Source: Actinomycetota bacterium
GTDB lineage: Bacteria; Actinomycetota; Acidimicrobiia; IMCC26256; BP-133
Assembly (NCBI GenBank): GCA_030838785.1
Contig: JAUZEY010000111.1
Span: 1-37,405 of the forward strand
Reading direction: 5' to 3'
DNA length: 37,405 nucleotides
Shown: positions 33,031 to 36,905 of the stretch, piece by piece
Layout: each line of letters begins with the position of its first letter
Position numbering within the stretch: position 1 is the stretch's first letter
Notes under the pieces: model-generated
The model's database searches: none
Told to the model about the DNA's origin: nothing
Seen by the model: only the letters and a program-made list of their open reading frames with translations
Made by a program: the position numbers and the translations under genes

Positions 33031-33234
33031 TCAGCGGCGAATCGGCCCGTCGTCGCAGGTCAGCGAGGAGTGTCGGCCGACTTCTTCCGGATCGAAGACC
33101 GCCCCGTTGCCGAGCACCTTCATTCCCGTCCGGGTGCGCATCCCGTCGACGGCGTACGACCGGAAGTTGCGAGCCAACACGTCGTCCAGGCTGGCCAGGT
33201 CTGCGGCGTTCACGGCGTCGAACAGGGTTCGCAC
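33031..33234 (-). pseudogene. Possible SnoaL/NTF2-like N-terminal fragment
   Basis: This 67-aa ORF begins TLFDAVNAADLASLDDVLARNF, the typical opening helix of SnoaL-like proteins, then loses similarity and stops. It overlaps the end of the SDR gene by 25 nt. Confidence 0.3.
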
Positions 33235-34121
33235 GGTCCGGGGTTGGGCGACGGACGCAGACCGAGGAGCTCCATACGGGCCACATCGAGTTCGGCGTCG
33301 GACTTCTCCCGCACCAGCCGCAGGATCTCCTCGGCGTCCGGGCCCACCGGCACCCGGATGGGCGCAGGCGTCTCCTCAGCGGCCTCGATCACCTTCGCCG
33401 CCGCGGCGTCCGCCGGCAGCCCCCGGTCCTGCATGCTGTTCAAGGCGGCGGCAAAGGCATCGAACGCTTCGCCGTACAGGTCTCGCTGCTCGGGGGTCAT
33501 CGACCGGGCGACCTTCTCGAGCTCGGCGGCGGTCTTGCCCGGTCCGCCGGTGACCATGTTGCCCGGTTGGACCATCACGAAATCGACACCGAAGGGCTTC
33601 AGCTCGCCGCGGTAGACGTCAGCGAACGCCTCCAGTGCCGCCTTCGACGCGCTGGAGGGCCCGTTGAACGGCAGCGGAAAGCGACCGGTCAGCGAACCGA
33701 TCTGGACAATGCGGCCTCGAGCCTTGCGCAGCGCCGGCAGGAAGGCGTGGATCACCGAGAGGCTGCCGAAGACGTTGACGTCGAACTCCCGCTTGATCGC
33801 ATCGAGAGACAGCAGCTCGAGCGGACCCGGCGACAGGATGCCGGCGTTGTTGACCACCACATCGAGCCCGTCGTCACCGAGGGTCTCCGACACCTGGTTC
33901 GCCCACCCCTTGACGGCCGCCTCATCGGTCACGTCGCAGACGGTCACGGCGACCTTGCCTCCGGACGCCTGCGCGAGCTCTGGGACGGCCTCCGGCTCCC
34001 GGGCCGTACCGAACACGCGATAGCCCTTCGCTGCCAATCCCAGGGCGATCTCCCGGCCCAGTCCACTGCCTGCACCAGTGATCGCTGCCGCCCGCCGCTT
34101 CTCGGATCCTGCCGTGGTCAT
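33210..34121 (-). CDS. SDR-family protein with the catalytic Tyr replaced by Ser
   Basis: 303 aa with ITGAGSGLG (TGxxxGxG), NNAG and IGSLTG. Where YSASK is expected, the sequence reads GPSSASKAALEAF (codon TCC). It also has a C-terminal extension of about 50 aa. Confidence 0.8.
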   Translation of the reverse strand: MTTAGSEKRRAAAITGAGSGLGREIALGLAAKGYRVFGTAREPEAVPELAQASGGKVAVTVCDVTDEAAVKGWANQVSETLGDDGLDVVVNNAGILSPGPLELLSLDAIKREFDVNVFGSLSVIHAFLPALRKARGRIVQIGSLTGRFPLPFNGPSSASKAALEAFADVYRGELKPFGVDFVMVQPGNMVTGGPGKTAAELEKVARSMTPEQRDLYGEAFDAFAAALNSMQDRGLPADAAAAKVIEAAEETPAPIRVPVGPDAEEILRLVREKSDAELDVARMELLGLRPSPNPGPCEPCSTP

Positions 34122-34123
34122 GG

Positions 34124-34672
34124 TCAGAGCTCCTCGATCGGCGCCATCCGGTACACGAACGGGCCCAGTCCCTCGCCGATGGCGAACACGATCTTGACGA
34201 GCGCTTCCTGGGAGGCGGCGTTCTCGATGGGTCCGGCCCAGACCGGGTCGTACCCGGCATCACGATTCAGCTGCTCGACCGCCTCTCGCGCCTCGGCGTC
34301 CCCGCACCACAGGTTGCTCGGTCGCGCCCGGGCCTTGCTGAGCTCCGGGTACAGCGACGCGAAATTGATGTTGAACGCCTTGGCGGTCGGGCCGTTCGTC
34401 TTCGACTTCACGAACTCCGCATTGGAGGCGAAGCCGGCGGGTGGCACGACGCCGTAGAGGTTCGTGGCATCGATCACCGTCTTGCCTTCGATGCCCCCGA
34501 CCTTTTCCAGCGCCTCGGCGATCGCCCCGCCCGGCACCGCCAGCAGCACCACCTCGGCATCGGAAACATCGCCGCCGTCACGCCCGAGTCGGGTCACGGT
34601 GTGGCCGGCCTGCTCCCACAGATCCGCCAGCCCGCCGCCGACGTTGCCCTTGCCCACCACGGTGATCCGCAT
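34124..34672 (-). CDS. NADP oxidoreductase, coenzyme F420-dependent family (F420_oxidored fold)
   Basis: 182 aa beginning MRITVVGKGNVGGGLADLWEQAGHTVTRLGRD...VVLLAVPGGAI..., a dinucleotide-binding N-terminus typical of the family. AAAGGA lies upstream of the ATG at 34672. The rest of the 399-aa ORF is the propeller repeats read in a wrong frame. Confidence 0.78.
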   Translation of the reverse strand: MRITVVGKGNVGGGLADLWEQAGHTVTRLGRDGGDVSDAEVVLLAVPGGAIAEALEKVGGIEGKTVIDATNLYGVVPPAGFASNAEFVKSKTNGPTAKAFNINFASLYPELSKARARPSNLWCGDAEAREAVEQLNRDAGYDPVWAGPIENAASQEALVKIVFAIGEGLGPFVYRMAPIEEL

Positions 34673-34728
34673 GGCGAAGTCCTTTCGATCGGACCACGGC
34701 CGTCCGGACCGGCCGTGATGGCGCTGGG

Positions 34729-35505
34729 TCAGCTGGACTCCGTGGTGACGGGGAATTCGGTCACCACCCCGGCGGTGGTGATCCGCCCGACCTTGCCGGC
34801 GACCATCTCGGTGAACCACAGGGTCCCGTCCGGACCGGCCGTGATGCCGATGGGTCCGCTCGACGCCGTGGTGACGGGGAACTCCGTCACCACCCCGGCG
34901 GTGGTGATCCGCCCGACCTTGCCGGCGAGGGACTCGGTGAACCACAGGTTCCCGTCCGGACCGGCCGTGATCGCGATCGGTCCGCTCAACGCCGTGGTAA
35001 CGGGGAACTCCGTCACCACCCCGGCGGCAGTGATCCGCCCGACCTTGCCGGCGACCATCTCGGTGAACCACAGGTTCCCGTCCGGACCGGCCGTGATGCC
35101 GATGGGTCCGCTCGACGCCGTGGTGACGGGGAACTCCGTTACCACCCCGGCGGTGGTGATCCGCCCGATCTTGTTGGCGAAGGACTCGGTGAACCACAGG
35201 TTCCCGTCCGGACCGGCCGTGATGCCAGTGGGTCCGCTCGACGCCGTGGTGACGGGGAACTCCGTCACCACCCCGGCGGTGGTGACCCGCCCGATCTTGT
35301 TGGCGACCATCTCGGTGAACCACAGGTTCCCGTCCGGACCGGCCGTGATCTTATCGGGGCCGCTGAACGCCGTGGTGACGGGGAATTCGCTGATCGTGCC
35401 GGTGACGGCAGAGGCGCCAGGCGTCTCGGCGGCGATCAGGCCCAAGGCGCCGACTCCCGCCACCAGCGCGGCTCGCCACGGTCGGATCTTACGTTTGGTC
35501 GCCAT
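34729..35505 (-). CDS. Secreted streptogramin-lyase (Vgb)-like beta-propeller repeat protein
   Basis: 258 aa with a signal peptide (MATKRKIRPWRAALVAGVGALGLIAAETPGASA). Five 42-aa blades follow with the Vgb-type motif ITAGPDGNLWFTE..A.K.GRIT.AGVVTEFPV, plus an N-terminal half blade. GGGAGAGG lies upstream of the ATG at 35505. Confidence 0.8.
   Translation of the reverse strand: MATKRKIRPWRAALVAGVGALGLIAAETPGASAVTGTISEFPVTTAFSGPDKITAGPDGNLWFTEMVANKIGRVTTAGVVTEFPVTTASSGPTGITAGPDGNLWFTESFANKIGRITTAGVVTEFPVTTASSGPIGITAGPDGNLWFTEMVAGKVGRITAAGVVTEFPVTTALSGPIAITAGPDGNLWFTESLAGKVGRITTAGVVTEFPVTTASSGPIGITAGPDGTLWFTEMVAGKVGRITTAGVVTEFPVTTESS
34742..35371. repeat. Five tandem 126-nt repeats (about 90% or more identical), plus a partial sixth to about 35395
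   Basis: The unit gtggtgacggggaactccgtcaccaccccggcggtggtgatccgcccgaccttgccggcg...ggtccgctcgacgcc recurs exactly every 126 nt, in frame with the CDS above. Confidence 0.95.
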
Positions 35506-35683
35506 GTGGTTGCCTCTCCCGCTGCTCGGAACGGCCGGCACGGCGGGGTTCGTAGGCGCAGTAGGTGTCGTAGATCCCGCCGTGGGAAGCGATGCCGTGC
35601 AGGATCAGCAGGGCATGGTCGGCCCTTTCACCCTCGAAGCGGTAGGCGAAGGTCTCGCCCAGAACGTGCTCTTCTCGTCGCAT
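35489..35683 (-). pseudogene. Possible alpha/beta-hydrolase (lysophospholipase/monoglyceride-lipase-like) N-terminal remnant
   Basis: The 64-aa ORF MRREEHVLGETFAYRFEGERADHALLILHGIASHGGIYD... matches the usual N-terminal strand and HG oxyanion region. It then degenerates and runs into the start of the propeller gene. No nucleophile-elbow (GxSxG) region follows. Confidence 0.3.
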
Positions 35684-35690
35684 GGGCCGC

Positions 35691-35719
35691 AGTCTTATGA
35701 TTTTTTCTCCAGCTGTCAA
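35691..35719 (-). promoter_or_regulatory. Candidate sigma-70-type promoter (TTGACA-16/17 nt-TAAGACT) in the TetR divergent spacer
   Basis: The minus strand reads cTTGACAgctggagaaaaaatcaTAAGACt. The -10 ends about 7-8 nt before the ATG at 35683, suggesting a leaderless transcript. This is the AT-richest spot in the window. Confidence 0.4.
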
Positions 35720-35751: not shown

Positions 35752-36402
35752 GTGCCGCCCGAACCCACTGCGCCCACCGAGACCCGAGGCCGTCCCCGCC
35801 TCCGCCGCGACGACGAGATCCTCGACGCCGCGCTGCTCGCCTTCGCCACCCACGGCTACGCCGGCATGTCACTGCGCCAGCTCAACAGCGAGCTCGGCCT
35901 CAGCCACGGCACCATCAGCCACCGCTACGGCTCGAAGGAGCGGCTGTACTACGCCGCCGTCGATCACGGCTTCGGTGGGCTCATCGCCGAAATGGACGAC
36001 GAGATCGGGCGACGCCCGCCCGCGGCGGACGAACTCGCCCAGGTCCGCGAACGCTTCCGGGCCTTCCTGGTCGTCTCCGCCCGCCGCCCCGAACTCGTCC
36101 GGCTCATGAACCAGGAAGGCCTGCACGCCTCCGACCGGCTCAACTACATCTTCGACACCTACACCCAACCCGCCCTCGCCGACACCTTCGCCACGCTGGA
36201 GCGCCTGGCCAGCGCCGGCGTCCTCCGGCCCGTGCCCGCAAGGGCCTTGTTCTTCCTCCTCACCCACGGCGCCGCCGCTCCCTACACCCTGACCGCTCTC
36301 TCAGCCCGCTTCGACCCCGCCGACGGCCCCCTCGACGAACTGGCCCACGCCGAACTCATCACCGACGTGACGATCAACGCACTGCGCCGACCGGGCCCCT
36401 GA
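35752..36402 (+). CDS. TetR/AcrR-family transcriptional regulator
   Basis: 216 aa with an N-terminal HTH (ILDAALLAFATHGYAGMSLRQLNSELGLSHGTISHRYGSKERLY). It has a GTG start and is divergent from the propeller cluster. Confidence 0.9.
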   Translation: MPPEPTAPTETRGRPRLRRDDEILDAALLAFATHGYAGMSLRQLNSELGLSHGTISHRYGSKERLYYAAVDHGFGGLIAEMDDEIGRRPPAADELAQVRERFRAFLVVSARRPELVRLMNQEGLHASDRLNYIFDTYTQPALADTFATLERLASAGVLRPVPARALFFLLTHGAAAPYTLTALSARFDPADGPLDELAHAELITDVTINALRRPGP

Positions 36403-36503: not shown

Positions 36504-36640
36504 TCAGGTGAAGTCTTGACCGCCGTCGACAAGGATCGTCTGGCCATTGACGTAGGCGCCGTCATCGGACAGCAGGAACGCCACCATCGCAGCGATGTCC
36601 TCCGGGACTCCAAGGCCCCGGTGGCCCCGCCGCGCTACGG
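36504..36640 (-). pseudogene. C-terminal remnant of an SDR gene
   Basis: The ORF ends ...GLGVPEDIAAMVAFLLSDDGAYVNGQTILVDGGQDFT*, a textbook SDR C-terminus. Nothing SDR-like lies upstream of about 36640 (no Rossmann or YxxxK part). Confidence 0.55.
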
Positions 36641-36649
36641 CAACGAGGT

Positions 36650-36905
36650 CAAGGAGACCGTCTCTACGAGGACTGGTCGACCCTCGACAAGTTCCAGCGC
36701 ACGAGGGGTGTGGCCGCCGTCGTCCGCGAGTCATTGGCAAGTGAACTGGCTGATGAAATGCAGAGTGCTATGCCAGCAGTCGAAGAACGCTACCGAGCGG
36801 AGAATGTCGGCCCATGGGACGACTGGGAATGGGGCTTCGTCAATGGCAAACTCTCGGCGCTGCGATGCGTGCTCGTGACTGGGACTTTTTGGACACCTGA
36901 CGAAA
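36650..36905 (+). pseudogene. Lower-GC fragment of an unknown protein, probably frameshifted near its end
   Basis: The open frame reads ...LYEDWSTLDKFQRT..ESLASELADEMQSAMPAVEERYRAENVGPWDDWEWGFVNGKLSALRCVL. There is no credible start or RBS. Another frame terminates immediately as DWDFLDT* (tgggactttttggacacctga). Confidence 0.3.

Follow-up and report, generated by a model that had tools for sequence, protein, structure and literature searches.

The 37,405-nt contig JAUZEY010000111.1 of the Actinomycetota assembly GCA_030838785.1 (Acidimicrobiia, IMCC26256, BP-133), here called the window, encodes on its minus strand a Vgb-like propeller protein with five nearly identical blades. All coordinates below are window positions. 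The genome is a soil metagenome-assembled genome (MAG) of 604 contigs built from short reads, and the number of inner repeat units rests on that assembly. The open reading frame (ORF) of the propeller, read from the sequence, occupies 34729..35505 (-) and has 258 codons with an ATG at 35505. Its leader, MATKRKIRPWRAALVAGVGALGLIAAETPGASA/VTG, is Sec-like as judged by eye and by a hydrophobicity window: it has an n-region KRKIR, a hydrophobic core of 15 residues and an ASA motif, and its hydropathy reaches a maximum of 2.4 in a 12-residue window. This agrees with the Sec-type signal peptide in an earlier reading of the DNA made from its letters alone (the original prediction). Exact-protein look-ups of the 258-residue protein and of a 270-residue form found neither on record.

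Tandem Repeats Finder (TRF) reported an array at 34700-35385 with a period of 126 nt, 5.4 copies, 90% matches, 0% indels and a score of 1090. Cutting the array in register gave five in-phase full units with pairwise nucleotide identities of 85.7-96.8%, of which units 3 and 5 are the closest pair, so that the five near-identical repeats of the original prediction were confirmed. At the protein level, pairs of blades have 34-40 of 42 residues alike (81-95%), which is above the 60% median identity used as a threshold for highly repetitive propellers. Synonymous divergence among the units is small (pS only 0.06-0.16) and pN/pS ranges from 0.4 to 0.9. Internally, the minimum likeness of a blade is 34-36 of 42 residues, against 32-35 of 42 for the best outside blade in 120 homologues and about 95 loci; in protein terms this is a narrow margin. 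For nucleotides, TRF found 90% matches here versus at most 86% in relatives. As judged by these identities, no outside blade examined is as near to a given blade as its sister blades are.

The distribution of differences within the array points to its history. The motifs follow exactly the pattern described before: FTEMVA in blades 1, 3 and 5 and FTES(F/L)A in blades 2 and 4, with ANKIGR in blades 1-2 and AGKVGR in blades 3-5. The informative sites are in conflict, since codons 27-28 group units 1, 3 and 5 against 2 and 4, whereas codons 30 and 32 group units 1 and 2 against 3, 4 and 5. This argues for exchange between units and not for a simple tree, and together with the closeness of sister blades it bears out the proposal of a recent amplification with conversion. 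The most divergent units lie at the ends of the array (unit 1 and the remnant of a sixth unit), as expected where unequal exchange homogenizes arrays. A clean two-blade amplification unit, which had also been suggested, is not supported: the alternation is limited to codons 27-28, TRF reported no 252-nt period in this array, and units 2 and 4 are 90.5% identical, no higher than neighbouring units. The variable codons (8, 12, 13, 27, 28, 30 and 32) take in the repeat positions that are catalytic in Vgb (10, 12 and 28), that is, the ligand face.

The 3' end of the array is broken. The last 9 residues of the protein are the start of a sixth unit, and this unit goes on in frame for 10 codons beyond the TGA before similarity stops, a continuation that the original prediction had overlooked. 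The remnant is 83-90% identical to the other units and 90% identical to the consensus unit, and a whole-genome search with hidden Markov models (HMMs) matched it to Vgb_lyase with one TGA inside. Repeat similarity ends abruptly after GGTCCGGACGG. Disrupted repetitive propellers are recognised by blade sequence in the 5' or 3' flank behind a stop or frameshift, and the remnant is of this kind. There is no further copy of the repeat unit elsewhere in the genome, and no leftover contig has one. A reading of the TGA as selenocysteine or as a read-through site was rejected because just 10 more blade codons follow, though no SECIS search was made. A scan of metagenome contigs with a 23-nt pattern across the stop gave just two chance matches, both in ABC-transporter genes. 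The positions of the repeat units, the broken end and the surrounding features are listed in Table 1.

Table 1. Features of the propeller locus, in window positions.
Feature	Coordinates	Strand	Basis
Repeat unit 1 (EFPVTTAFSGPDKITAGPDGNLWFTEMVANKIGRVTTAGVVT), most divergent full unit	35263-35388	-	register cut
Repeat unit 2	35137-35262	-	register cut
Repeat unit 3, 96.8% identical to unit 5	35011-35136	-	register cut
Repeat unit 4	34885-35010	-	register cut
Repeat unit 5	34759-34884	-	register cut
Unit-6 remnant, 59 nt (EFPVTTESS-stop-PSAITAGPDG), in frame throughout	34700..34758	-	alignment and HMM match
TGA stop; units 2-5 have the Gly codon GGA at this place	34729..34731	-	unit alignment
Break-point spacer, 27 nt, with GAAAGGA ribosome site of the next gene	34673..34699	-	read from sequence
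Start codon and predicted Sec-type signal peptide (...PGASA/VTG), residues 1-34	35404..35505	-	translation, by-eye prediction
Shine-Dalgarno GGGAGAGG, 6 nt from the ATG	35512..35519	-	read from sequence
Promoter-like TTGACA, 16 nt, TAAGAC, pointing at the remnant ORF and the propeller	35691..35719	-	read by eye
NADP/F420-type oxidoreductase-fold gene, 182 aa, directly downstream	34124..34672	-	domain match
Upstream remnant ORF, 64 codons, resembling the N-terminus of an alpha/beta hydrolase (..ALLILHGIASHGG..)	35489..35683	-	weak similarity, E 0.004 to locus L025

The array falls short of a ring in a specific way. In complete relatives a single strand (D0) opens the chain and strand C of blade 7 is the last one, which leaves D0 to close the ring. 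The chain described here is made up of D0 plus five full ABCD blades, and its last strand is a D strand. D0 is an orphan 'velcro' strand made of the first strand of unit 1 and the preceding TIS; what had been read as an N-terminal half blade is thus the single strand TISEFPV. An AlphaFold2 (AF2) model computed with a 59-sequence alignment has a pLDDT of 91.5, a pTM of 0.84 and 20 strands forming five blades, with the N-terminal TISEFPV strand (residues 37-43) unpaired. Foldseek aligned the model with Vgb over 216-224 columns at 1.0-1.2 A (TM 0.81-0.85 by query, 0.70-0.75 by target), and six-bladed Pizza and NHL structures fit at 3.6-4.3 A. Since a fit of 1.0 A means that the five blades keep seven-fold curvature, the model implies an open 5/7 arc and not a closed five-bladed ring. 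A closed version of the novel five-bladed form proposed earlier is accordingly not what is predicted; a single-sequence AF2 run, of moderate confidence (pLDDT 70.6), gave no five-bladed match either.

The family assignment is clear. Pfam PF24684 (Vgb_lyase) matches with 289.2 bits (E 3e-86; gathering cut-off 50 bits), and the next families (DUF7133, SGL, NHL) score at most 37 bits. The Vgb-like assignment thus stands, with Vgb also the best structural match, and an NHL or SMP-30 identity is not the better fit, given 23.5 bits for NHL, 26.6 bits for SGL and the poorer superposition. The match covers model positions 2-222 of 290, short of a full-length seven-bladed propeller. The NCBIfam models for Vgb(A) and Vgb(B) (NF000022 and NF000096) gave 207.4 and 211.5 bits against a cut-off of 600. 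Identity to Staphylococcus aureus Vgb (2Z2N) is 44-45%. We take H228, E268, H270 and E284 to be the Mg2+-binding and catalytic residues of Vgb, with the numbering checked against the 2Z2N alignment; they were reportedly described by Korczynska and colleagues in 2007. The title of the H270A entry 2Z2P is consistent with this set. Counted along the 2Z2N alignment, all four residues fall in blades 6-7, beyond the end of the protein, which agrees with the location of the Mg2+ and substrate site of Vgb in blades 6 and 7 (PMC8916777). At the equivalent repeat positions, in a shifted alignment, the blades have G, I/T/D and V/F/L, and the mature protein contains zero His, Cys, Tyr and Gln. With blades 6-7 and histidine missing, the protein is, by predicted fold and by sequence, a member of the Vgb_lyase family and most probably not a streptogramin B lyase.

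Homologues number in the thousands and come mainly from soil metagenomes and from many phyla. The best relative has at most 68% identity and the top matches belong to unrelated phyla, simply because the blades are near the family consensus. Among the 120 best homologues the modal blade count is 7, and 96 of them carry a hydrophobic leader, as do both paralogues in the same genome. Other repetitive relatives (L026, L027, L034, L028 and L062; 80-86% matches) have 6.5-6.9 copies of the unit. It follows that export is normal in this branch of the family, that seven blades are preferred even in young arrays, and that the array described here is about 1.6 blades short. Secretion, which the original prediction had contrasted with the cytoplasmic Vgb, is thus not unusual, and the comparison of blade numbers suggested there points to seven.

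Some further observations concern these relatives. The two paralogues in the genome of the window (G000), on contigs C55 (L001, 1369-2397 -) and C107 (L004, 1449-2717 -), have seven diverged blades and lipoprotein-like leaders (..LAATAC.. and ..LGTAC..). In several relatives, periods of 252 or 378 nt are at least as strong as the 126-nt period (L104, 3019-3645; L051, 3000-3861; L026, 3104-3970); L104 has 83% matches at 252 nt versus 76% at 126 nt. In the homologue P0053, FSANK and WNGDK loops alternate blade by blade. Amplification of two- or three-blade units, which the published survey has once, may thus recur in the Vgb-like family. Two giant proteins carry several tandem Vgb-like seven-bladed propellers (L062, whose open frame of more than 2300 aa takes up the whole 6969-nt locus, and L034 with 1580 aa); between the propellers of L062 lie repeated Cys-containing modules of about 90 residues that might be Ig-like. 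Both come from long-read or large MAG contigs.

A second allele of the locus was found in a sister strain (about 95-98% identical; runs X25 and X26, one sample). In its contig, 34163 is followed directly by 34682, and the loss of the 518 nt between them (34164-34681) removes the whole oxidoreductase gene downstream of the propeller. A stretch of 11 nt has five changes (34729 T>A, 34731 A>C, 34735 G>C, 34736 G>A and 34739 T>G), by which TTESS-stop becomes TTALSG, as unit 4 reads, with GGT (Gly) in place of the stop. This cluster looks like a short conversion tract. The sister frame crosses the same break and continues in frame through the 12 final codons of the deleted gene (...AGPDGRGPIESPFVYRMAPIEEL), so the C-terminus is a stop in one strain and a 29-residue unrelated tail in the other. 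Since the break is the same in a strain that has Gly, the truncation of unit 6 predates the split of the strains. On the 5' side, the upstream remnant ORF of the sister strain has lost 130 nt (35547-35676), and the leader of the propeller is kept. The strains differ in the stop codon, and erosion is under way on both flanks.

The ends of the array were also found in independent soil runs. Logan contigs cover the 3' end at 34639-34789 (X1), 34646-34812 (X2), 34536-34781 (X4) and 34000-34789 (X6). These four contigs are from independent soil samples, have 0-6 mismatches, and each has the break and the TGA; at the break-point spacer they agree with the window to within 0-1 mismatch. The 5' end is covered from 35320 or 35321 (X1 and X2) and from 35311 (X4). 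Both array ends are therefore real and not assembly artefacts. Independent contigs also span the unit boundaries 6/5 and 5/4. Within the array, Logan contigs (k = 31) break at every shared stretch of at least 31 nt and hence are fragmented. Out-of-phase 'joints' at 90% likeness were ascribed to other family genes, and no Nanopore run contains the locus. The only runs listed as RNA-Seq are labelled GENOMIC and were left out as evidence for transcription. In X6, one 156-nt unitig with a depth of 17.2, versus a single-copy depth of 9.28, fits both 34760-34915 and 35012-35167; at twice the single-copy depth it represents two copies, matching the assembly. Units 3 and 5, flanks included, thus show no difference across 156 nt in that strain, against 4-5 differing sites in the window, which points to ongoing homogenization that differs between strains. 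As to a contingency locus with variable blade number, one of the options in the original prediction, the differences seen among strains concern unit sequence, the stop codon and the flanks only; Logan contigs are unable to count units.

These data bear on the possibility that inner units were collapsed during assembly, and that the true gene has more of them (e.g. seven) and encodes a complete propeller ending at the same TGA. The source, a fragmented short-read soil MAG, would allow this. No independent contig spans the boundaries 4/3 and 3/2, the region 34984-35040 has zero depth in X1-X4, and the unit-specific 5' part of unit 4 is absent from the Logan contigs of these runs. In X1, a 42-nt unitig expected twice has a depth of 43 against a single-copy depth of 10, though its words occur also in other organisms. 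However, the longest exact repeat within the array is 64 nt, well under read length, so that 150-nt reads can place every unit. The depth of the 156-nt unitig in X6 and the lack of leftover contigs with the unit also speak against a collapse, and the 3' break and the missing Vgb residues would stand even with more units. We regard a collapse as possible but disfavoured, with a low probability.

The neighbourhood of the propeller was likewise compared with the idea of a small detoxification unit formed with the oxidoreductase, the short-chain dehydrogenase/reductase (SDR) and the divergent TetR gene (35752-36402 +). In its full form, this explanation takes the protein for a Vgb-type lyase or esterase that is exported, attacks cyclic depsipeptides or other small molecules and belongs to a TetR-controlled operon. 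It would account for the strong Pfam match and the identity to S. aureus Vgb, as well as for two reductase-fold genes close by on the same strand with TetR divergent. Yet the propeller lacks the catalytic blades and all histidines and scores far under the NCBIfam Vgb cut-offs. The oxidoreductase is lost in the sister strain. Upstream of its sole orthologue from the same genus lie a DoxX-like gene and an LLM-type oxidoreductase, and no propeller adjoins it. The SDR (33210-34121 -) reads ...NGPSSASKAAL... at the YxxxK site, where Tyr is replaced by Ser (SSASK). The propeller itself has a hydrolase stump on one side and its broken end on the other, and several gene remnants occur around it, including fragments downstream of the TetR gene. 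The detoxification unit is thus not supported, and the lyase reading, largely refuted by the missing site, appears very improbable.

The upstream remnant ORF, for which a Pfam search with its 64 aa gave no match, starts just past the promoter-like site and overlaps the start of the propeller gene. The promoter-like TTGACA/TAAGAC site lies in the spacer shared with the TetR gene and is still present in the sister strain; a strict consensus promoter scan found nothing, this site included. A foreign origin of the propeller gene was rejected as its GC and GC3 resemble those of the adjoining genes. Further along the window, an ORF of 78 codons at 36504-36740 (-) has about 35 last residues (..DIAAMVAFLLSDDGAYVNGQTILVDGGQDFT) that resemble an SDR C-terminus, so it is an apparent gene fragment, and a gene for a PIN-domain (VapC-like) toxin lies at the contig end (37108-37404 +).

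We consider it likely that the locus holds an exported Vgb-like propeller that was recently amplified and then disrupted inside blade 6, and that it is not a streptogramin lyase. In the course of events that we propose, one 126-nt (42-residue) blade would have been amplified in tandem recently, with exchange between the units afterwards. The cut would then have fallen in the sixth unit, behind the first strand of blade 6; in the strain of the window, TGA would also have taken the place of a Gly codon ten codons ahead of the break. The product would be an orphan closing strand followed by five complete blades of most probably a seven-bladed ring. That the ancestor was seven-bladed is most probable from the state of its relatives, and the model suggests that the stump would be unable to close the ring alone. 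For its present state, we lean slightly towards a young gene in decay.

Several observations weigh against this scenario. Firstly, the 777-nt frame has neither frameshift nor internal stop, its ribosome site and leader are good, and its composition is host-like (GC3 0.91). Secondly, the sister strain retains the propeller while it has lost DNA on both sides, and its 62 N-terminal codons show 5 synonymous against 4 non-synonymous differences (binomial p = 0.07 versus neutrality), a count that is mildly suggestive of purifying selection. Thirdly, the AF2 geometry may have been inherited from the seven-bladed alignment, and stable dimers are known from five-blade fragments of a WD40 propeller with seven blades (PMC6805158). 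Lastly, no orthologue with a full array was found, the seven-bladed ancestor being drawn from relatives, and the inner unit count comes from a single short-read MAG.

Part of this evidence would also suit a functional protein: an exported five-blade binding protein under selection and stable by self-association, for example as a dimer like PDB 6R60, with its hypervariable top-face loops as ligand sites. The open frame with an intact leader and ribosome site would be expected of such a protein, and so would its retention in two strains about 5% apart while the flanks were deleted. The changes in the N-terminal part point in the same direction, the variable codons 8, 12, 13, 27 and 28 include ligand-face repeat positions, the AF2 blades are confidently folded, and oligomeric fragments have an experimental precedent (PMC6805158). 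Against it, the selection signal is not significant (p = 0.07), and natural oligomeric propellers are very rare (PMC9218822). The neighbourhood is decaying as well, and the change of the C-terminus from a stop to a 29-residue tail between strains means that this end is not conserved, which weighs against a functional stump. We hold this explanation to be doubtful, and give the same tentative standing to survival of the stump as a binding module that needs self-association. The stronger proposal, a natural five-blade fragment kept by selection as a self-associating binder whose ligand-face loops are reshuffled by unit conversion, seems unlikely.

If the amplified and disrupted propeller is what the locus holds, an annotation as 'streptogramin/virginiamycin B lyase', and its inclusion in counts of soil resistance genes, would be wrong, as the catalytic part is missing; the label is likewise unsupported for the few other exported soil homologues inspected. 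The locus would provide a clean, datable case of an amplify-homogenize-decay cycle in the Vgb-like lineage, in which two strain alleles show that the broken end is still being remodelled (stop versus Gly, deletions on both flanks). Should the stump be folded and selected, it would offer a rare natural test of whether fragments with a sub-stoichiometric number of blades function. A selected five-blade fragment would then be the natural counterpart of engineered WRAP and Pizza assemblies and would show a propeller at work either before or after it had the 'right' blade number.

Compared with known systems, the protein resembles Staphylococcus Vgb (PDB 2Z2N, 2Z2O, 2Z2P and 2QC5) in its Pfam family, its 42-residue blade, its level of identity and the superposition of its five blades. 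Vgb is cytoplasmic and has seven diverged blades, with the Mg2+ site H228/E268/H270 (plus E284) in blades 6-7, whereas the present protein combines a leader with 5.25 near-identical blades and lacks both blades 6-7 and His. It shares a signal or lipoprotein leader and the consensus ITEFPxPTxxSxPxGITAGPDGNLWFTE...IGRITTAG with exported soil 'streptogramin lyase' homologues, some of which also have near-identical blades and alternating loops (P0053; L026 and L027 at 85-86% nucleotide identity). These differ in having about seven blades, in ending after strand C of blade 7 and often in carrying extra C-terminal domains; none is orthologous (at most 68% identity). The designed Pizza proteins (PDB 3WW9 and others) also consist of near-identical 42-residue blades, and Pizza6 is detectable by sequence (E 5e-12), but Pizza is six-fold and lies at 4 A root mean square deviation from the model. 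The direct experimental analogue of the present protein is a five-blade fragment of a seven-fold parent, the WRAP fragment (6R60), which is designed as well. Afanasieva et al. found that a five-blade fragment of a seven-fold WD40 propeller formed an odd nine-blade dimer and not a ring (PMC6805158), and by analogy the stump could still fold.

The closest parallels are the highly repetitive propellers (Chaudhuri, Söding and Lupas, 2008; Pereira and Lupas, 2022), in which blades are near-identical in both protein and DNA and resemble one another more than the blades of other proteins. Pereira and Lupas (2022; PMC9218822) showed that propellers whose blades exceed 60% identity keep emerging in every lineage, that Actinobacteria often have them, and that their blade numbers scatter about the preferred number of the lineage. 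A non-trivial number of them are disrupted by stops or frameshifts, have blade remnants in the flanks and are apparently decaying soon after birth; the main text of their paper does not name a Vgb_lyase-like lineage. The present array resembles these disrupted cases in its off-preferred blade number, its in-frame stop, the blade sequence in its 3' flank and its actinobacterial host. It differs in having been ended by a deletion plus a stop, and in that two strain alleles show the remodelling of the end. The locus fits the published birth-and-decay cycle of propellers closely and is probably one more example of it, not a new resistance enzyme.

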